Shown here in pieces: positions 977 through 42,872 of a DNA stretch of 53,724 nt. Under the pieces are notes generated by a model. That model was not told the DNA's origin. It searched no databases and saw only the letters and a list, made by a program, of their open reading frames with translations. Both the position numbers and the translations under genes were made by a program. Source of the DNA: a virus (Duplodnaviria > Caudoviricetes); the IMG/VR virus record IMGVR_UViG_3300035008_000006, positions 1-53,724 of that record. One strand, written 5' to 3'. Position 1 is the first letter of the stretch; every line of letters starts with the position of its first letter.

Positions 977-1714
977 ATGATGCGCCCATCGCAGAAGCTG
1001 GCATTATCGCACGCAATAGCGACAGAACTGCAGCAACGCTACGGGTTCGATGACATCTCGGCCTATCTGGCCGAGCACAAGCTCCAGGCAACTGCACACC
1101 AAGATTATTTTGAAGACGCTGTCGACTGGGCCAAATCTGCGCTGCGAAAAGCCGATGCCGCCACTCTGCTTAGCATCTCGGAAGACCTTGAAATTAACTC
1201 AGCCGTTTTCCGATCTTCAGTACCTCCCAAGAACTGGCCGGATAGCTCCAAATATCGGTTGTTCATAAGTCATCTGGCGAAGCACAAGCTCTACGGCACC
1301 AGGCTGCGCGATTGCCTGTTACCGTTTCACATATCAGGCTTTGTCGCCCACCAAGATGTCCACCCAACCGCTGAATGGCAAATCGAAATCGAGCGCGCGC
1401 TATCAACTATGGACGCTTTTCTGGCAATTCATACGGTGGGATTCAAAGACAGCTATTGGGCGCAGCAAGAAGTCGGGTTCGCTGTTGCTCGACGCGTCAA
1501 GATTATCTCATTTAGGATGGGCGAAGATCCTGTCGGCTTCATAAGCAAACAGCAAGCTTTGCCGCATGAGAAACGAATGGCAGAAGACATCGCGAAAGAG
1601 ATCAATGCGTTGCTAATGGATGATCCTGCCACCAGCACTCGACTGGCCCAAGTTATTGAATTGAATACGCCGAAGAAACGAAGCTTCGATATTGATGACG
1701 AAATTCCGTTCTGA
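977..1714 (+). CDS. TIR domain protein, putative anti-phage effector, with helical N-terminal domain and acidic DDEIPF tail
   Basis: LFISH, FVAHQD, W-x3-IERAL, SYWAQQEVGFA with catalytic Glu; AGGA before ATGATG at 977/980; lower GC than the prophage core. Confidence 0.85.
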   Translation: MMRPSQKLALSHAIATELQQRYGFDDISAYLAEHKLQATAHQDYFEDAVDWAKSALRKADAATLLSISEDLEINSAVFRSSVPPKNWPDSSKYRLFISHLAKHKLYGTRLRDCLLPFHISGFVAHQDVHPTAEWQIEIERALSTMDAFLAIHTVGFKDSYWAQQEVGFAVARRVKIISFRMGEDPVGFISKQQALPHEKRMAEDIAKEINALLMDDPATSTRLAQVIELNTPKKRSFDIDDEIPF

Positions 1715-4550: not shown

Positions 4551-4733
4551 ATGCTGCCCACTATAGAAAAGAACCCGGACTGGCCGCCGCTGTGTCCGAA
4601 CTGCGGGACTCAGCTAACCCTATTTCCGGAGATCGATGCATCCGGCCCGTCAATTAAAGGATTTTGGTGCTCGCCCTGCGGTCACATATTCATTTGGGAT
4701 AAAGACAAGCAAAGACTCGTTAGTAGCCAATGA
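4551..4733 (+). CDS. zinc-ribbon micro-protein, paralog of 19729..19917
   Basis: CPNC..CSPC; shares PDWPP, SIKGFWC and QRLVS with the second copy. Confidence 0.75.
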   Translation: MLPTIEKNPDWPPLCPNCGTQLTLFPEIDASGPSIKGFWCSPCGHIFIWDKDKQRLVSSQ

Positions 4734-4855: not shown

Positions 4856-5269
4856 TCATCGCATGGTCACAATTTTTTGCCGCTGCTCACTCCACTCCAC
4901 CGGAAACCGCCGCATCAGTCCATCCAGCTGCAGTCCTGTCGGCTGCCGCCCACCCAAGATCGTCTCGACTACGTCCGGCGCCAGCAGCGTCAGCCGCAGG
5001 ACGCGACCGACGTAGGACTCGTTGATCTTTTCGGCATTGGCGATCTCGCGGATGGTTGAGTATTCGCCGGTTTCCAGCATGTCGCGCCAGCGAAACGCCC
5101 GGGCGATCGCCTTGACCATAGCGCTGTCCACATGCCGGGTGACTGGTGCGGCGGTGACATCAGCACCGTCGGGAGCGAGCACGAGTTTCCGCCCACCGCG
5201 CCTGTGTATTGCGATCGGCACTCGCACCGTGACAGTGCGGGCCTCGATGCTGCAACGCGACTCGGTCAT
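4856..5269 (-). CDS. recombinase-associated HTH-like protein
   Basis: KAIARAFRWRDMLETG..YVGRVLRLTLLAPD, a family I recognise downstream of DUF2924-recombinase pairs; coupled to recombinase stop. Confidence 0.8.
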   Translation of the reverse strand: MTESRCSIEARTVTVRVPIAIHRRGGRKLVLAPDGADVTAAPVTRHVDSAMVKAIARAFRWRDMLETGEYSTIREIANAEKINESYVGRVLRLTLLAPDVVETILGGRQPTGLQLDGLMRRFPVEWSEQRQKIVTMR

Positions 5270-6579
5270 TACGCCGCCCTCAGCGCTTCCGGTCTGATGG
5301 TACGCAATTCGTTGACCAGATTTGTCAGCCCCTCGGTCCGTAGCTGAATGTCGGCGCCATCTGGGCTGACATCGACGCGCTCGACGAGCAATTGCACGAT
5401 GCGCGCCTGCTCGGCCGGAAAGAGCTCGTCCCAGAGCGGATCGAGCCGCTGCAGCGCCTCGCGCACCTCGGTTTCGGAGATATCGCCCTTTGATGCCGCG
5501 CGCCAGGTACGCACAATAATTTCAGGAGCGCGGAGCAGAGCGCGCAGCTGGTCGACGACCGCGCTCTCGATCTCGGCTGCGGGGACCCGCCGCACCGGGC
5601 AGGCGTCGGCGTCGCGTTTCAGCACGTCGGTCGAGACGTAGTATCGATAGAGCTTCCCTCCCTTGCGCGTATGCGCCGGGGTCATCGCCCTGCCGGTCGG
5701 CCCAAAGATCAGGCCCTTGAGCAGGGCCGGCGTTTGCGCCCTCGTGTTTGCAGCGCGCTTCCGCGGGCTTTCGCGCAGGACGGTGTGGACGCGGTCCCAG
5801 AGAACACGTTCAATGATGGCTTGGTGCTCGCCGGGATAGGCGACGCCCTTGTGCACGGCATCACCGATATAGACCCGGTTGTTAAGCAGCTTGTAGACGT
5901 AGCCCTTGTCGACGAGCTTGCCCTGCTTGCCCCGGACGTTTTCGGCTCGGAGCTTGCGCACCAGTTCGGTTGCCGAGCCAATCTTGATGAATTGCTCGAA
6001 AATCATCCGAACTGTCGCGGCCTCGGCTTGGTTCACGATCAGCTTGCGATCCTTGACGTCGTAGCCGAGCGGGACGAAGCCGCCCATCCACATGCCCTTC
6101 TTGCGAGACGCGGCGAACTTGTCGCGGATGCGTTCGCCGATAACCTCGCGCTCGAACTGAGCGAAGCTGAGAAGGATGTTGAGTGTCAGCCTCCCCATCG
6201 AGGTCGTGGTGTTAAACGATTGGGTCACGCTGACAAAGGTGACATTGTTGCGATCGAACACCTCGACCAGCTTGGCGAAATCCATCAGCGCGCGGCTGAG
6301 CCGATCGATCTTGTAGACCACGATAACATCGACGCGCCGGTCCTCGATATCGGCGAGCAGACGTTTCAGCGCCGGCCGCTCCAGGGTGGCGCCCGAAATC
6401 CCGCCATCATCATAACGGTCCGGCACCAGCACCCAGCCCTCGGGCTTCTGGCTCGCGATATAGGCTTCGCAAGCCTCGCGCTGAGCGTCGAGCGAGTTGA
6501 ACTCCTGCTCAAGCCCCTCCTCGCTCGATTTGCGGGTGTAAACTGCACAACGGAGCTTGCGCACGACAGGTTTCTTCAT
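5269..6579 (-). CDS. large serine recombinase (integrase)
   Basis: CAVYTRKS catalytic motif, DDGGISG, YKIDRLSR, AQFERE, recombinase domain; ATGA overlap with DUF2924. Confidence 0.95.
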   Translation of the reverse strand: MKKPVVRKLRCAVYTRKSSEEGLEQEFNSLDAQREACEAYIASQKPEGWVLVPDRYDDGGISGATLERPALKRLLADIEDRRVDVIVVYKIDRLSRALMDFAKLVEVFDRNNVTFVSVTQSFNTTTSMGRLTLNILLSFAQFEREVIGERIRDKFAASRKKGMWMGGFVPLGYDVKDRKLIVNQAEAATVRMIFEQFIKIGSATELVRKLRAENVRGKQGKLVDKGYVYKLLNNRVYIGDAVHKGVAYPGEHQAIIERVLWDRVHTVLRESPRKRAANTRAQTPALLKGLIFGPTGRAMTPAHTRKGGKLYRYYVSTDVLKRDADACPVRRVPAAEIESAVVDQLRALLRAPEIIVRTWRAASKGDISETEVREALQRLDPLWDELFPAEQARIVQLLVERVDVSPDGADIQLRTEGLTNLVNELRTIRPEALRAA

Positions 6580-7025
6580 CGCGCCACCCGCTGGTTCTTG
6601 AGGCCAAAGAAGACCCGGCCGTTCCACTGCGTGCCGGTGATAGCGCGGGCGATGGCCGAGAGCGATTTGTAGGGGCGGCCCTGGTATTCAAAGCCGTCGT
6701 CGCGCACGGTCACGCAATGCTCGATGCCCTGGTATTCGCGGATGAGCCGGGTGCCCGCGATGGGGCGATCATGATCGGCGCGGCGGCGCCGCACATCCAC
6801 CTTGCCGCCGTCGAGCGTCTCGGCCAGCTCACGGAGACGCCGCAGGGTCTCCGGTTTCAGTCCGCCATAGGCGAGTTCCTGAATCCGGTAGGCCAGCCGA
6901 TGCTCCAGGAAGCGCCTGTTATAGGGCGGCGGCTCGGACTCATAGAGATCGCGCCATTTCTGTTTCAGTACGCCGATCGGCGCCGTTTTCAGGGCGGCCA
7001 GTTGGGCCAGTACGGTGTCGGTCAA
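6576..7025 (-). CDS. DUF2924 protein
   Basis: LAYRIQELAYGGL, GTRLIREYQG, YKSLSAIARAITGTQWNGRVFFGL. Confidence 0.92.
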   Translation of the reverse strand: MTDTVLAQLAALKTAPIGVLKQKWRDLYESEPPPYNRRFLEHRLAYRIQELAYGGLKPETLRRLRELAETLDGGKVDVRRRRADHDRPIAGTRLIREYQGIEHCVTVRDDGFEYQGRPYKSLSAIARAITGTQWNGRVFFGLKNQRVAR

Positions 7026-7402: not shown

Positions 7403-8143
7403 ATGCCTTTTGTACAGGTCGCGTATCGACACTCTTCTACCGGTCAGCCCTCCGGACTGACCCCGGCGGATGTCTGGCAGGTTGCCCAGCGAATCCGGGT
7501 TCAAATTCGCGAGGAGCGCCTTAACCGCTGCCTGCCGGTCGAAGTGGTCATCGACCGGTTGACCGAGATCGAGGTCAACGGGCTGCAGTTTGAGGCATCC
7601 TGGGATCTCGAGCATCCGGTCAAGAACGCCGCCGGCAAACCGGTGATGGGGGTTACGGAATACGACGTCGCGTGCCCCCGCTGCGTGATGGTGTCGGTGA
7701 ACGGGCCGATGCTGGCCGATGCGGAAACCTTGCTGCGTTCCACCATCGCGCATGAGATCGGTCATGTGGTGTTTGACGCGCCCGGTTGGCTTCTGACGCC
7801 GCCAGCCCGGCCGGTGTTTTCGAGCTTCAGTTTGTCACCGAAGACGCGGGATCCTCGCGAATTGCGAGCAAACGAGTTCATGGGAGCGTTGCTCGCACCA
7901 CCCTCATTACTGAAGGTCGACCTGCAGCGGCAGGCCAAGCGCCAGCGCATGCCGGCTGCCGTCCGGCCATCGCGGGTCATCTCCGGCGCGTCCGCTTATG
8001 ACGGTCGCAAGCTCGATCGCGATGCCGTCGAGGAGATCATCTTCAATCTCGCCGAAAGCTACGGCGTCTCTGAAAGTTTCATGCGTGTGAGACTCGACCG
8101 GTACGATCTGCTGCGTACCGGCGACTCCTGGGATGCCCGTTGA
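7403..8143 (+). CDS. ImmA/IrrE family metallopeptidase
   Basis: RSTIAHEIGH (HExxH), ELRANEFMGALL, LAESYGVS; adjacent XRE gene. Confidence 0.9.
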   Translation: MPFVQVAYRHSSTGQPSGLTPADVWQVAQRIRVQIREERLNRCLPVEVVIDRLTEIEVNGLQFEASWDLEHPVKNAAGKPVMGVTEYDVACPRCVMVSVNGPMLADAETLLRSTIAHEIGHVVFDAPGWLLTPPARPVFSSFSLSPKTRDPRELRANEFMGALLAPPSLLKVDLQRQAKRQRMPAAVRPSRVISGASAYDGRKLDRDAVEEIIFNLAESYGVSESFMRVRLDRYDLLRTGDSWDAR

Positions 8144-10377: not shown

Positions 10378-11226
10378 GTGATGCCGGTCAGGATTATTAC
10401 CGCCGACGAACGGCTGTCGGCAGCCAATAACAAGACGTCCGTGGCAATTTTCGGCCCAAGCGGGGTCGGCAAGACCACCCTGCTCAAGTCTCTCCCACCC
10501 GAACAGACTGTCTGCCTCGATCTCGAGGCCGGCATGAAATCCGTGCAGGACTGGCCTGGCGCCAGCATTCCGGTTCGAAGCTTCGTCGATTTCCGGGATC
10601 TGGTTGTCCTGATTGGAGGCGCGGATCCGGCGGCCGATCCCAACGCCTGGTATAGCGCGCAGCATCTTCAGCACGTACGCGGCGTCTATGCCGGAAGTGG
10701 CCTTGAGGAATTCCTGGCCTCGAAGTCGATTGTCTTCGTCGACAGCATCACCGACCTCACACGTCAGGTGATGACTTATGCCCGCCAGCAGCCGGAAGCC
10801 ATCTCGGAGCGAACGGGGAAGCCCGATGTCCGCGGCGCTTACGGCTTGCTCGGCCGCGAGGTCATCCAGGCGCTCAAGCACCTGCAGCACGCACCCGGCA
10901 AAACCGTGATCTTCGTCGGCGTATTGGAGAAGGTCACCGACGAGTTCAACGTCACGACCTGGCAGCCGCAAATGGAAGGTTCAAAAGCCGGTCGTGAACT
11001 GCCTGGCATCGTCGACCAGGTGTTGTCGCTGCACCTGTTCTCACGCGATGCCGAGGGCGCCTATCTGCTCGACGAGAAAGCAAGCGAACGCCGCTTCGTC
11101 TGCCGCGCCGGCAATCCCTTCGGGCTACCAGCCAAGGATCGCAGCGGCCGGCTCGATATGACCGAGCCGCCGGATCTCGGTGCGCTGCTCCCCAAGATCA
11201 ACCTGCTGCAGACCCGCGCCGCCTAG
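10378..11226 (+). CDS. AAA_24/Sak4-like phage ATPase
   Basis: Walker A GPSGVGKT, LDLEAG, VFVDSIT, PAKDRSG. Confidence 0.85.
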   Translation: MMPVRIITADERLSAANNKTSVAIFGPSGVGKTTLLKSLPPEQTVCLDLEAGMKSVQDWPGASIPVRSFVDFRDLVVLIGGADPAADPNAWYSAQHLQHVRGVYAGSGLEEFLASKSIVFVDSITDLTRQVMTYARQQPEAISERTGKPDVRGAYGLLGREVIQALKHLQHAPGKTVIFVGVLEKVTDEFNVTTWQPQMEGSKAGRELPGIVDQVLSLHLFSRDAEGAYLLDEKASERRFVCRAGNPFGLPAKDRSGRLDMTEPPDLGALLPKINLLQTRAA

Positions 11227-12559: not shown

Positions 12560-13357
12560 ATGATCGATCTGAACCATGGGTCCGGCTGTCAGTACGCGCG
12601 CCCGTGCCGATTACCCGGCATCGCGGTCGCCGTGAATGGCGCGATCGATGCCGCCTTGAGCGCGCGGGACAAGGCGCAGCCGCCGCGGCGATACGTTAGC
12701 ACGTCCGGGCTCGGCCGCGAGTGCGTACGGCAAATTCAATATGACTATCTGGCGGTGCCCAAGGACGAAGGCCGCGCGTTCGAGCCAAAGACCCTTCGCA
12801 TCTTCGAGGCCGGACATCGTGCCGAGGAGATCGTTGCCGGCTGGCTGAGGGCGGCCGGGTTCGACCTGCGCACGCAGCGGCCGGATGGACGCCAGTTCGG
12901 ATTTTCCGCCCTCGACGGACGTTTCAGGGGCCACATCGATGGCTGCCTCGTCGCCGGCCCGGTCGCGATGGAATTTCCGGCGCTGTGGGAGAACAAGGCT
13001 GTGGGCGCGGCGCCCTGGAAGGAGATCGTCAAGCGAGGCGTCGTGTTGGCACGGCCGATCTATGCCGCACAGATCGCGCTCTACCAAGCCTATCTCGATC
13101 TGCCGAACCCGGCGCTGTTCACCGCACTCAACCGCGACACGTTCGAGTTGCACTGTGAGCTGGTGCCGCTCGACTCTGGTCTCGCCCAGCGAACGAGCGA
13201 CCGCGCCGTCGAGACCGTCCGCGCCTGTGACGTGCAGGAGCTGCTGCCGCGCGCCGCTGCCGACCGCAGCTCGGCGATCTGCCGCGGCGGCTGGGCCGGC
13301 GGGGAATGGCACGGCGCTTGCGCCTGGCAGGACCGGTGCTGGAGCGCGGCGTTATGA
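12560..13357 (+). CDS. PD-(D/E)XK nuclease, Cas4/RecB-like
   Basis: GHIDG..LWENK, QIALYQAY, N- and C-terminal Cys residues. Confidence 0.8.
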   Translation: MIDLNHGSGCQYARPCRLPGIAVAVNGAIDAALSARDKAQPPRRYVSTSGLGRECVRQIQYDYLAVPKDEGRAFEPKTLRIFEAGHRAEEIVAGWLRAAGFDLRTQRPDGRQFGFSALDGRFRGHIDGCLVAGPVAMEFPALWENKAVGAAPWKEIVKRGVVLARPIYAAQIALYQAYLDLPNPALFTALNRDTFELHCELVPLDSGLAQRTSDRAVETVRACDVQELLPRAAADRSSAICRGGWAGGEWHGACAWQDRCWSAAL

Positions 13358-22585: not shown

Positions 22586-22627
22586 GGGTCCTTCCTTCGG
22601 GGGCCTCACAAGCGGTGGCGCCGCCGC
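22586..22627 (+). other. candidate cos packaging site
   Basis: GGGTCCT identical to lambda cosQ, then near-palindrome GCGGTGGCGCCGCCGC at 22612-22627; gpA-type terminase downstream. Confidence 0.55.
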
Positions 22628-22704
22628 CCGGAAAACGCACGTTTTTCCAAATCAAAAAACCTCAGTTTGGTTTGGTTTGTCGGCTGAATAACCCAACGAT
22701 ATCA

Positions 22705-24135
22705 ATGCTCGATGCTCAAAAACCCTCAGCCGCCTGGCCGGCGGCGAAAATCGAATTCTGGCCTATCGAGCGGCTCACCGTAAACCCGCGCAATGCCCGC
22801 GTTCACGGTGCCGAGCAGATCGAGCAGATCCGGGCATCGCTCCGGGAATTCGGCTGGACCATGCCGGTGCTGGTGCGAGAAAGCGGCATGCTGATCGCCG
22901 GGCACGGCCGGTTTCAGGCGGCCAAGCTGGAAGGCATCGTCGAGGTTCCGACGATCGTTGCCCGCGGCTGGAGCGAGGCGCAATGCCAAGCCTACGCAAT
23001 CGCCGACAACCGACTGACGGAATCGAGTGAGTGGAGTGATGACCTGCTCCGGCTTGAGCTCGGTGATCTGCGCGATGCCGGTTTTGATCTGACGCTGACC
23101 GGCTTTGATCCGAATGAGCTCGACAAGCTATTGCTGGTAGATGCTGACGGAGATGGCGACCCCGACGAGGCCCCCGAACCGCCTGCCGATCCTATCAGCC
23201 GTTCTGGCGATCTGTGGGTATGCGGCGAGCATCGTGTGCTGTGCGGCGATGCAACCGTTCTGGCAGATGTCGAGAAGGTGCTGGACGGCGAACTCGCGGA
23301 TATGGCTTTCACCGATCCACCCTACAATGTGGACTACGCCAACACTCCAAAGGACAAGCAAAGCGGCAAGAATCGTCCGATCCTGAATGATAATCTGGGC
23401 GCGGATTTCGGCGCCCTTCTGTACGACGCCTGCGTTAATATCCTGACCGTCACCAAAGGCGCTGTCTATGTCTGTATGTCATCGTCTGAACTCGACCGGC
23501 TGCAGAAGGCGTTCCGCGAGGCCGGCGGCAAGTGGTCAACCTTCGTGATCTGGGCCAAGAACACCTTCACACTCGGCCGCTCAGACTATCAGCGTCAATA
23601 CGAACCTATCCTCTACGGCTGGAAGCAGGGAGCTGAGCACTATTGGTGCGGCGCCCGTGACCAGGGTGATGTGTGGTTCTTCGATAAGCCGGCGAAGAAT
23701 GATCTGCACCCGACAATGAAGCCGGTGGCGCTGGTGGAACGGGCGATCCGGAATTCGTCAAAGAGCCGGGACATCGTGCTCGATCCGTTCGGCGGCTCAG
23801 GGACCACGCTGATCGCGGCGGAACTGGCGGGACGGCGGGCGCGGGTGATCGAGCTCGACCCACGGTACGTCGATGTGATCGTGGAGCGATGGCAAACGGC
23901 AACCGGTGGGAGCGCAGCCCTACATCATACCGGTCAAACTTTCTCGACTTACTCTGCCAGACGGTCAGTTCCACCCGACAACGTCCGACCTGAACAAGGG
24001 CGTCAGGGCCAACTTGGCCGTGAGTCGATGTTCCCCGACAGTCATTCGTTAGCTTCGCTCAATAGCGCTGAAGATGAAACCCGTAAGGGTGCTACCAACC
24101 GCCATAGTCGAAGCTGGAACCCCGATAACAACTAA
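22705..24135 (+). CDS. ParB N-terminal domain plus N4/N6 DNA methyltransferase (beta class)
   Basis: NPRNARVH, IAGHGR, IADNRL; DPPY before HPTMKP and DPFGGSGTT. Confidence 0.9.
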   Translation: MLDAQKPSAAWPAAKIEFWPIERLTVNPRNARVHGAEQIEQIRASLREFGWTMPVLVRESGMLIAGHGRFQAAKLEGIVEVPTIVARGWSEAQCQAYAIADNRLTESSEWSDDLLRLELGDLRDAGFDLTLTGFDPNELDKLLLVDADGDGDPDEAPEPPADPISRSGDLWVCGEHRVLCGDATVLADVEKVLDGELADMAFTDPPYNVDYANTPKDKQSGKNRPILNDNLGADFGALLYDACVNILTVTKGAVYVCMSSSELDRLQKAFREAGGKWSTFVIWAKNTFTLGRSDYQRQYEPILYGWKQGAEHYWCGARDQGDVWFFDKPAKNDLHPTMKPVALVERAIRNSSKSRDIVLDPFGGSGTTLIAAELAGRRARVIELDPRYVDVIVERWQTATGGSAALHHTGQTFSTYSARRSVPPDNVRPEQGRQGQLGRESMFPDSHSLASLNSAEDETRKGATNRHSRSWNPDNN

Positions 24136-29835: not shown

Positions 29836-30989
29836 TCACAGCGAATATGGGAACTTCAATACCGTGGCCGTACCCTTCGTTACTTCGAGAACGGCGAGCC
29901 GGCCCCCAAGCTGGCGCGAGAGACCTTCAACCAACTGTAGCCCAAGCGAGCCGGCCCGCTTTGGTCCCATGCCGCGTCCGTTGTCCCGCACATCAAGCTG
30001 TGCTTCCCCGATTGCTTCGTTCACCCGCAGAGTGACGTTGATTATACCGCCCTCTTCGTCGAATGCGTATTTGACCGAGTTGGTCCCAACTCATTAAGAA
30101 TGAGTCCGACCAAAACCGCGCGGTCCAGCGGGATGCTCGCCGAGTCAAAGTCCGTGTCGATCGTGAGGTTTGGACGACGCGGGTCGATATTGGCGCAAAG
30201 CGACTTCAGATAATCGCGCATATTAACACTGCTGCCGCTTTTCTTGAAAGAAAGCTGATCGTGCGCCAGACCAATAGCCATCACGCGATCCATCACGCGA
30301 CCGATACGCGACCTCGCTTCTTCAGTCGCAGATTCCCTGCCTTGCAATGCGAGAAAGCTAACAATCACCTGCAAATTGTTCTTCATCCTATGCTGCAGCT
30401 CGCGCAGCATGATCTCGGCCTCGGCTCTGCCTTCGTTGATTAGCGACGCGGCCTTTGCAGCTGCGTTTTGCGCCGCGACCTTCGCGAGCGCCGCGCCAAG
30501 GATGTTGGCAAAAATGGCTAGCGAGTGAATGTCGAATTCAGAAAACGCAGTCTTTTCGACGGTGTCGACCTCGAGCACGCCCCAATGCGTACCGTCAACG
30601 AACACCGGTACGTTGAGCACGGATACAATTCCATGCTCTCGTAAAACGTCGGGATAGCGAAATTCCGGATCGTTCGCTATGTCTTCGACGACGACCGGAG
30701 CACCGGTTTGCATCGAGCGGCCGGGTGCGGAAAATCGGTCTGCGCTAAAGGTGGCGTGGCCGACAACGCCCGGCTTCCAACCGACCCCTGCTTCGATTAA
30801 GAGGTCGCCTCGGTCGGGACGATAACGCAAGACCTTCGTATGCTTGATGTGGGTAACACGAGCTACCTGTGCAGCGGCATTCTGCAACAGACCTGGACTT
30901 GAGCCTGATTCATCCACAATTCGCGTGAATGTAGCGAGCGCGCGCCTGTAGCTAAGCGCCTTTTCTGGATCAAGTACCGGACCGGTCAT
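29836..30989 (-). pseudogene. GAF plus HisKA_2 sensor histidine kinase, frameshifted
   Basis: ELQHRMKNNLQ H-box; 1-nt loss near 30085 breaks LNEL(V)TNSVKYAF; DNGRGM..GLQLV continues in 29836..30024. Confidence 0.85.
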
Positions 30990-42015: not shown

Positions 42016-42128
42016 ATCGGCCCGTGATTGGGCGCGTTGAAGCTGGCGACATTTCGTCTAAACTGTCTAGGTAAGCGAAAATGACCTTAGTACTTGCATC
42101 GCTGATGGCTCAACACAGGAACATCGCA

Positions 42129-42872
42129 ATGAAGCGCTTTGTTTTGGCCGCTACCGTGTTGCTCGCTCTCTCTACCGCACAGGCTGGCGCTACGGAGATT
42201 AGACTCCTTGCGTCCGGAGCCTTGCACGACGCGTTGTCGAAAGCCTTGTCAGATTTTGAGAAATCGAAATCGCTCAAGATAGACGTGACCTGGGCCGGCG
42301 CAGCCGTTTACCGACCGATTTTATCATCTGACAAGCCGTTCGATGCTGTCATTGTTACGGCAGCCGATGCGGATGCATTTATCAAGAGTCAGAAGTTAAG
42401 AGCGCCTAAGGTTGATCTTGCTAAGACAGGCATCGGCATCGGCGTGCGCAAAGGTCAACCAAAACCGGACATCAGCACTGTCGAGCGCGTCAAAGACACG
42501 CTCTTGCAGGCAAGATCAATTGGCTACTCCATGGGTCCAAGCGGGGCATATGTACAAAAACTGATAGCTACTCTGGGCATTGCGGACGCTGTACGTCCGA
42601 AGCTCAGGCAGACCACGAGTGGTCGGGAAGTTGGGAAACTGATCGCAACGGGCGATGTCGAGATCGGCTTTCAGCCGATCAGCGAACTCGTTCATGCCGA
42701 AGGCGTGGATTTCGTCGGAGGGTTGCCGAGTGAGATCCAGTCTTTCACCGTTTACTCCTTTGCCGTCCACGCGAAGGTAAGCGACGAGAAGGCTGTTCAG
42801 GACCTGAGTGATTTTCTCAGAACATCCCAAGTTCGCGGAGCATTGCAAAGCGCAGGAATGGAACAGCCCTGA
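42129..42872 (+). CDS. periplasmic ModA-fold substrate-binding protein (cargo)
   Basis: Signal peptide MKRFVLAA..AQAGA; GIGVRKGQPKPDIST, GPSG, GFQPISEL; atypical codon usage. Confidence 0.85.
   Translation: MKRFVLAATVLLALSTAQAGATEIRLLASGALHDALSKALSDFEKSKSLKIDVTWAGAAVYRPILSSDKPFDAVIVTAADADAFIKSQKLRAPKVDLAKTGIGIGVRKGQPKPDISTVERVKDTLLQARSIGYSMGPSGAYVQKLIATLGIADAVRPKLRQTTSGREVGKLIATGDVEIGFQPISELVHAEGVDFVGGLPSEIQSFTVYSFAVHAKVSDEKAVQDLSDFLRTSQVRGALQSAGMEQP

Follow-up and report, generated by a model that had tools for sequence, protein, structure and literature searches.

A stand-alone TIR protein with an SSB-like C-terminal tail encoded near the end of a provirus record: a candidate single-gene defence protein

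Little is known of the means by which single-gene defence proteins detect an infection. One of them, SpbK of the B. subtilis element ICEBs1, is a TIR protein of the abortive-infection type that is triggered by a protein of phage SP-beta. Thoeris systems also use TIR proteins (ThsB, and ThcB4 in type III), there together with a ThsA-type effector that has SIR2/SLOG, Macro or TM parts, and NADase TIR domains occur in SPARTA TIR-APAZ and in SARM1 alongside APAZ, Argonaute, ARM or SAM parts. Single-stranded DNA metabolism is monitored by Retron-Eco8, for which the trigger is the phage's SSB (the protein that binds single-stranded DNA) according to two reports (PMC13402713; 10.1101/2025.11.11.687766). 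The SSB of the host is itself a hub, one paper (PMC7145534) giving at least 17 partner proteins that are recruited by its acidic tip and another (10.1101/2020.04.14.041095) describing how phage RecT/Red-beta read the 7 C-terminal residues of host SSB with specificity for that host. The window, by which we mean the whole of the provirus record IMGVR_UViG_3300035008_000006 (53,724 bases), encodes near one end a stand-alone TIR protein whose C-terminus resembles that of SSB, and amongst relatives of this protein the tail tracks the SSB of the carrying genome, which suggests a host-matched decoy. The TIR effector class and the single-gene format, as in SpbK, are already known; the host-matched SSB-tail decoy is new as far as our searches reach, and in a search of mainly open-access literature there was no report of a TIR protein, or of any defence protein, being connected with an SSB-like tail.

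The preliminary description of this DNA, which was made from its letters alone, had claimed an open reading frame (ORF) that ends, after a short linker, in the SSB-like tail SFDIDDEIPF, and the translation and the AlphaFold2 (AF2) model both bear this out (Table 1). The C-terminal end of the translated frame is ...KKRSFDIDDEIPF and the stop codon of the 245-codon frame comes directly after ...PKKRSFDIDDEIPF, which leaves DIDDEIPF as the terminus, with acidic residues followed by an [ILV]-P-F tip. Linker and tail (residues 231-245) are modelled as coil with a predicted local distance difference test (pLDDT) score of 64-76, the tail lies undocked in the monomer model, and the linker varies in both length and sequence among the aligned homologs. 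The second ATG, at 980, may be the true start of the gene, because an identical database protein has 244 residues and the homologs start MRPS...; a further in-frame upstream codon is the TTG at 914.

What the protein has in common with bacterial SSB is a disordered linker and then acidic residues and [ILV]-P-F at the C-terminus. SSB has an OB fold and a long Gly/Pro-rich linker and the TIR protein has neither: Pfam gives TIR_2 alone in the protein, the SSB family PF00436 has zero matches across the whole record, and the similarity is convergent at the protein level.

Whether the tail is a chance ending can be judged from the family, and its conservation among homologs, a check that had been proposed at the outset, holds. 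A word-indexed search gave 487 relatives, 120 of which were listed, and once the identical protein is excluded 105 of the 119 homologs among the matches listed end in [ILVM]P[FYW] and 90/119 in [DEN][DEN][ILVM]PF. The [ILVM]P[FYW] ending is also found in 63 of 149 further, more distant representatives. It is kept in 39/68 of the long forms (at least 295 residues), in which a further helical region precedes the tail, and tail-bearing long relatives of about 310 residues share just 33-38% identity with the window protein. The family is large: when cluster representatives were searched exhaustively, 2,829 matched at E<=1e-3 and 1,784 at E<=1e-10, tail-less relatives included, and the sources seen call its members no more than 'TIR domain-containing protein'. 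The family's C-terminus seems to be an exchangeable module, because many tail-less relatives carry a different conserved C-terminal module in its place. Tail-less relatives of about 285 residues (P0187, P0189, P0197, P0205, P0208 and others) share one such module, which ends in a pattern like ..NSQV..AFGVP.RI..L... Some relatives, tailed or tail-less (P0081, P0120, P0122, P0192, P0247), have an N-terminal AbiJ_NTD3 domain (PF18860), to which the window protein has no match at E<=1.

The comparison that bears most directly on the tail is with the SSB of the same genome. Among 80 genome loci 57 TIR ORFs end in [ILVM]P[FYW], and a search for SSB in all 57 genomes left 52 usable TIR/SSB pairs, three genomes having no SSB match and two being dropped as their SSB frame did not end in PF. 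The SSB tails of the 52 genomes are D[DE][DE][ILV]PF or near variants. Over the last ten positions (-10..-1) 284 of 520 residues are identical within pairs, against a mean of 224.0 when the pairs are shuffled, and over the four of these farthest from the C-terminus (-10..-7) 41/208 are identical against 18.6, with 0 of 20,000 shuffles reaching the observed value in either case. At position -3 the two proteins agree in 48/52 pairs (I/I 39, L/L 5, V/V 4). Part of this holds within groups: at -6..-3 the 32 alphaproteobacterial pairs give 86/128 against 68.6 and the 20 pairs from other phyla 53/80 against 35.9 (0/20,000 for both), and the pairs from other phyla also show an excess at -10..-7 (22/80 against 8.7; 1/20,000).

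Individual pairs illustrate how close the match can be. A Kerfeldbacteria metagenome-assembled genome has TISIEDIPF at the end of both proteins, a gammaproteobacterium EEFDDDIPF and one alphaproteobacterium YDDLDDDIPF; in Sulfuricurvum the TIR protein ends IDIDEDEIPF and SSB IDINEDEIPF, and in a member of the Dehalococcoidia the unusual terminus ...DDLEDLPW stands beside an SSB that ends ...DNLEDLPW. The tail of the window protein, DIDDEIPF, is similar to D-M-D-D-E-I-P-F, found in two of the Hyphomicrobiales genomes that were paired, which are only a proxy for the host of the window. When 301 genomes of one order were searched with the right-hand flank of the record, two short and weak matches were all that came up.

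Gene conversion from the 3' end of ssb was considered as the source of the likeness and rejected. In the 11 best-matched pairs the codons of identical residues agree at the third position in only 38/88 cases, and past the stop codon the two genes show no relationship. As synonymous sites differ and the DNA beyond the stop is unrelated, the sequences speak for selection on the peptide and not for recent copying of ssb, and the likeness is best described as protein-level mimicry maintained by that selection.

The same observations bear on the suggestion that the ending is unrelated to SSB and acts in autoinhibition, as a degron or as a tag for oligomerisation, its resemblance to the SSB tip being incidental. 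An ending made up of acidic residues, a hydrophobic residue, Pro and Phe is short, and some members of the family have variants without acidic residues; we nevertheless regard this explanation as most improbable, given that the tail tracks the SSB tail of the same genome, including the rare LEDLPW, whilst synonymous sites differ, and that the tail is undocked in the monomer model. The motif is also more than a chance ending. A search of five genomes (21 Mb) with the DNA pattern of D-[DE]-[DE]-x-P-F-stop gave six matches, four at ssb and two at the TIR gene of this family and none elsewhere, and the reversed pattern, used as a control, gave 1 match.

The remainder of the protein is a TIR domain behind a small helical domain. 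Pfam TIR_2 (PF13676) matches residues 96-185 with 35.3 bits, above its gathering score of 28 (E 1.8e-8), and the AF2 model, made from 114 homologs with a mean pLDDT of 91.3, has a five-helix N-terminal domain at 4-79 and a flavodoxin-like TIR fold at 93-230. Foldseek relates the TIR part to SPARTA TIR-APAZ, SARM1, BtpA, AbTir and SpbK at E 2e-4 to 1e-3, and gives a probability of 1.00 for the TIR domains of SPARTA, SARM1, BtpA, AbTir, SpbK and MyD88. The best structural matches to residues ~93-230 are the NADases SPARTA TIR-APAZ and SARM1, at E 2e-4 to 2e-3 and 11-18% identity, and the APAZ, Argonaute, ARM and SAM parts of those proteins are not in the window. SpbK (PDB 9phb, a filament) matches the TIR part at E 9.9e-4 and is likewise a stand-alone protein on or near mobile elements, but it has no SSB-like tail and no sequence relationship to the TIR protein, a search of all PDB sequences with the family profile (114 homologs) having given 0 matches at E<=0.01.

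E165 lies on helix 160-172, and the residues of WxQQE (W161, Q163, Q164 and E165) are invariant in 114/114 aligned homologs. W-x-x-x-E on helix alpha-C is the motif of the catalytic glutamate in TIR NADases, and E165 is presumed to be catalytic on the ground of this motif. The TIR domain with an intact catalytic Glu that had been described from the letters is therefore sound as regards the fold and the conserved glutamate, whilst the catalytic role of that residue stays a presumption.

Two copies of the protein are predicted to form a symmetric dimer, with a score of 0.77 against 0.02 for the best of 3 controls. Of 30 proteins solved as one-chain pairs 20 attained the mark, as did 1 of 23 solved as single chains, counts that are only approximate for this score because our own alignment was supplied as input. 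The score expresses the confidence of a model and is not a measured quantity. The dimer runs share at least 45% of contacts, the pLDDT of the partner is at least 79, and the predicted interface (residues 132-143, 157-172 and 186-191) includes the WxQQE helix. The dimer, if real, may perhaps be a resting state in which the active site is covered.

The N-terminal domain modelled alone has a pLDDT of 87.8. Its top row in VIA-align is the FADD death domain (Z 6.6, root-mean-square deviation 2.9, 79 aligned), followed by CARDs, PYD and other death domains at Z 4-5.6 and by the bacterial death-like domain 8ss1 at Z 3.9. XRE-type helix-turn-helix proteins score at similar Z, however, such values can be reached by chance for small helical bundles, and Foldseek found no match for this domain at E<=0.001. 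The layout may thus be that of MyD88, a death domain followed by a TIR domain, as a lead only, these scores being too weak to assign a fold; the MyD88-type death fold has six helices against the five of the model.

Taking tail and TIR domain together, the reading that we favour, which we hold to be quite possible though somewhat short of probable, is that this is a single-gene TIR defence protein of the abortive-infection type in which a host-matched decoy of the SSB C-terminus does the sensing or targeting, its function and binding partners being presumed. The tip would dock in those pockets into which the tail of host SSB fits. In an infected cell, abundant oligomeric phage proteins that must dock on the host SSB, with replication proteins or recombinases of the single-strand-annealing type (RecT/Red-beta/Sak4) as candidates, would capture several TIR tails at once, the TIR domains would be brought together, and the resting dimer would become an active TIR assembly that cleaves NAD+ (or makes a signal) and stops the infected cell. 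The fuller proposal is one about which we are more doubtful. In it an immune protein found in many bacterial phyla displays a decoy of its own host's SSB tail, a hub peptide that recombination and replication proteins of phages have to read in order to function in that host, and the decoy co-evolves with the host hub. Any phage protein adapted to docking on the host SSB would therefore also grab the TIR effector and so trigger NAD+ destruction, which would amount to decoy-type effector-triggered immunity built on a peptide of some 8 residues. Retron-Eco8-type defence resembles this scheme in that single-stranded DNA metabolism is monitored; in the reports cited above it is the phage SSB protein that is detected, whereas the TIR protein itself bears a copy of the host SSB tail. 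The prophage in the window encodes a Sak4-like annealing protein and an exonuclease and no SSB, which illustrates the kind of phage function that relies on host SSB without being evidence for this annealing protein as the trigger.

If the favoured reading is true, bacterial immunity would be tied to the SSB interaction hub, and bacteria would offer a clear example of a decoy that mimics the host and evolves together with the guarded hub. It would also predict where phages are vulnerable, namely in recombinases and replication proteins that depend on the SSB tail. The candidate sensor is a peptide of 8-10 residues, and because this can be read from a genome and compared with the ssb gene of the host the hypothesis is directly testable.

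A number of points weigh against a host-matched decoy. Defence, NAD+ cleavage and binding by the tail are all inferred, and no curated defence model claims the family. The shuffles ignore the relatedness of the genomes, and within the Alphaproteobacteria positions -10..-7 show no excess (19/128 against 15.5; 2,435 of 20,000 shuffles reach it). A tree of the TIR core without the tail yields only 4 independent contrasts on well-supported branches, in about 3 of which the tail follows SSB, in 0 of which it opposes SSB and in about 1 of which it is unchanged, so that a sign test (p 0.25) is underpowered. Mismatches at position -3 (M/I, L/I, L/V and V/I) do occur among the pairs, and an Arcobacter-type ...GKIPF and a planctomycete ...YKIPF are without the acidic residues of their SSB tails. 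Five loci that were picked for their oddness and stand outside the 52 pairs end in DDLPPF, DDEPPF, GWGEPF, SAWTF and VWPSF, where the SSB of the same genomes ends in DDEIPF or DDDVPF. The helix that bears E165 is buried in the predicted dimer. The partners of the host SSB would moreover be expected to bind a decoy constantly, and copy number and valency are needed to explain why this does not matter. Finally, when the two nearest ORFs on each side (144 ORFs) were scanned at 36 of 52 loci with at least 4.5 kb on both sides, 14 of the 36 had restriction-modification, AbiTii, AbiJ_NTD4, AAA_15/21, further TIR, integrase, transposase, relaxase, resolvase, partition or ParE neighbours, which speaks for the favoured reading, but the neighbours at 22 were housekeeping or unannotated genes only.

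Two of the odd tails are alphaproteobacterial, at L040 (DDEPPF, with DDDVPF in SSB) and L017 (DDLPPF, with DDEIPF in SSB). EPPF is the ending of actinobacterial SSB, and these tails may reflect recent transfer or mimicry of another SSB.

The main rival of a bait for phage proteins is a sensor of competition, in which the TIR protein is parked through its tail on partners of the host SSB (ExoI, chi, RecO, PriA and the like), is displaced when SSB tails are exposed, and once freed assembles and fires. The cue would then be the state of the host SSB hub, that is SSB-coated single-stranded DNA arising from phage replication or DNA damage, and not a phage protein. Tail conservation and host matching are expected equally here, as host partners co-evolve with the host tail, and no phage-specific ligand is needed, which fits the very wide taxonomic spread of the family. 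Such a sensor would, on the other hand, respond to ordinary replication stress, the five odd tails and the non-acidic GKIPF and YKIPF fit it as poorly as they fit a bait, and the data do not separate the two; we consider it unlikely. The preliminary description had offered the tail either as bait or as a means of docking on replication and repair machinery, and the present data do not distinguish between these.

A further alternative, suggested by the profile matches, is that the protein is a signal producer of the Thoeris kind, making a nucleotide signal for an effector elsewhere in the genome whilst the tail only localises it. The shared feature is a TIR_2-type domain. A PADLOC run, proposed earlier as a check, did return ThsB, as a weak and partial match (27.4 bits, E 4e-7), and no partner gene in the window; the best NCBIfam match is Thoeris ThcB4, and there are matches to ThsB_TIR in tail-less relatives. 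The ThcB4 score is 33 bits against a curated cut-off of 220, however, and a ThsA-type or other partner is neither present in the window nor conserved within 3.5 kb of the relatives at 80 loci, which makes this explanation very unlikely.

That the gene stands alone, with no Thoeris, CBASS or Argonaute partner adjacent, had been stated from the window itself, and both statements stand up in the wider data. No such partner is present among the 58 ORFs of the window or the 31 ORFs scanned with PADLOC. An all-against-all blastp of 2,242 ORFs from within 3.5 kb at the 80 loci gave no neighbour family in more than 5 loci, on which ground a conserved partner gene was rejected, and the seven window ORFs near the TIR gene had no tblastn match in the 80 loci. 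At L050 (3776-8193) there are three clustered TIR_2 genes, the family member being flanked by one TIR gene on each side. In two related genomes (L034 and L049) the family gene directly follows that for quinolinate synthase NadA, of NAD biosynthesis, which is probably a coincidence as the two are close relatives.

The family is patchy, and a sample of 401 genomes of one phylum, searched for more non-alphaproteobacterial pairs, contained it in one genome only, the seed itself. It has no match in 50,697 phage genomes and the TIR protein matches no PHROG family, and a scan of viral contigs found one other relative, directly after a tyrosine integrase; on these grounds an origin in phages was rejected. 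Matches occur in 6 of 72,556 plasmids, conjugative plasmids included, among them a Klebsiella IncF plasmid with a 310-residue form that ends in ESDDIPF, and a repeat of the plasmid search at E<=10 added nothing useful. Together with the lack of a conserved neighbour and the position of both provirus-record copies at the integrase end, the patchiness and the near absence from phages speak for an accessory, defence-like gene.

These locations raise the question of whether the protein has anything to do with immunity, as it might instead be cargo of mobile elements that competes with SSB for its partners and modulates how the host recombines, repairs or restarts replication, to the benefit of the element, with the TIR domain as a scaffold or an NAD-linked regulator. 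Both copies in provirus records are at the integrase end, others are on conjugative plasmids, and a copy of the tail would be expected to draw partners away from SSB. The majority of copies, however, lie in chromosomes beside unrelated genes, the family is nearly absent from phage collections, and the invariant glutamate of WxQQE argues for catalysis, and we think it very unlikely that the protein is cargo of this type, though less so than a motif unrelated to SSB.

In the window itself a temperate myovirus is recognisable from 4856 rightwards (Table 1), and the TIR gene lies about 3 kb beyond the last phage-family gene. The G+C content of the stretch that holds it is 0.53-0.58 against ~0.62, and the other ORFs of the stretch have no Pfam, PADLOC or PHROG family save for a weak PHROG row for a 60-residue ORF (4551-4733). 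From its distance to the phage genes, the lower G+C content and the family-less neighbouring ORFs we conclude that the TIR gene is edge cargo or flanking host DNA and not a core phage gene. A promoter and terminator scan of 600-2300 gave nothing above shuffles, and the window has no tRNA.

Table 1. Features of the TIR gene and of the prophage in the window
Feature	Position	Strand	Basis or remark
Coding sequence of the TIR protein	977..1714	+	245 residues and stop; ORF translation
N-terminal helical domain, residues 1-80, five helices, family-conserved	977..1216	+	AF2 models
TIR domain, residues 93-230	1253..1666	+	Pfam TIR_2, AF2, Foldseek
W161-A-Q-Q-E165 codons	1457..1471	+	W161, Q163, Q164 and E165 invariant in 114/114 sequences
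E165 codon, presumed catalytic glutamate	1469-1471	+	Invariance in family; equivalence to the WxxxE motif presumed
Variable disordered linker, residues 231-235, LNTPK..	1667..1681	+	Between last TIR helix and tail; coil
SSB-C-terminus-like tail SFDIDDEIPF, residues 236-245	1682..1711	+	Conservation, and SSB match in relatives
Recombinase accessory gene, serine integrase, DUF2924	5269-6627 (serine integrase)	- (serine integrase)	Prophage integration region
ImmA/IrrE-type metallopeptidase, HEIGH motif	7403-8143	+	Adjoins integrase module; weak PADLOC capP-like match, E 9e-7
Sak4-like single-stranded-DNA-annealing protein	10378-11226	+	phrog_124, E 3.8e-36; Pfam AAA_24
Cas4-domain exonuclease	12560-13357	+	phrog_1990
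ParB_N fused to N6/N4 DNA methyltransferase	22615-24135	+	PADLOC MTase_II, E 2.9e-154; orphan methylase just upstream of terminase
GAF and HWE/HisKA_2 histidine kinase	30042-30989	-	Opposite strand in virion-structure block; 1-kb G+C dip, 0.557
Periplasmic solute-binding protein SBP_bac_11	42081-42872	+	Between tail-fibre and sheath genes; low-G+C kilobase, 0.548
Helicase, primase/VapE protein, terminase, portal, capsid, baseplate and sheath genes	right of 4856		Prophage

The recombination module of the prophage presumably depends on the SSB of the host, because the record is without an SSB gene. Two of its other genes stand out from their surroundings: the histidine kinase looks like a moron, and the solute-binding protein is an unusual cargo for its place among the tail genes.

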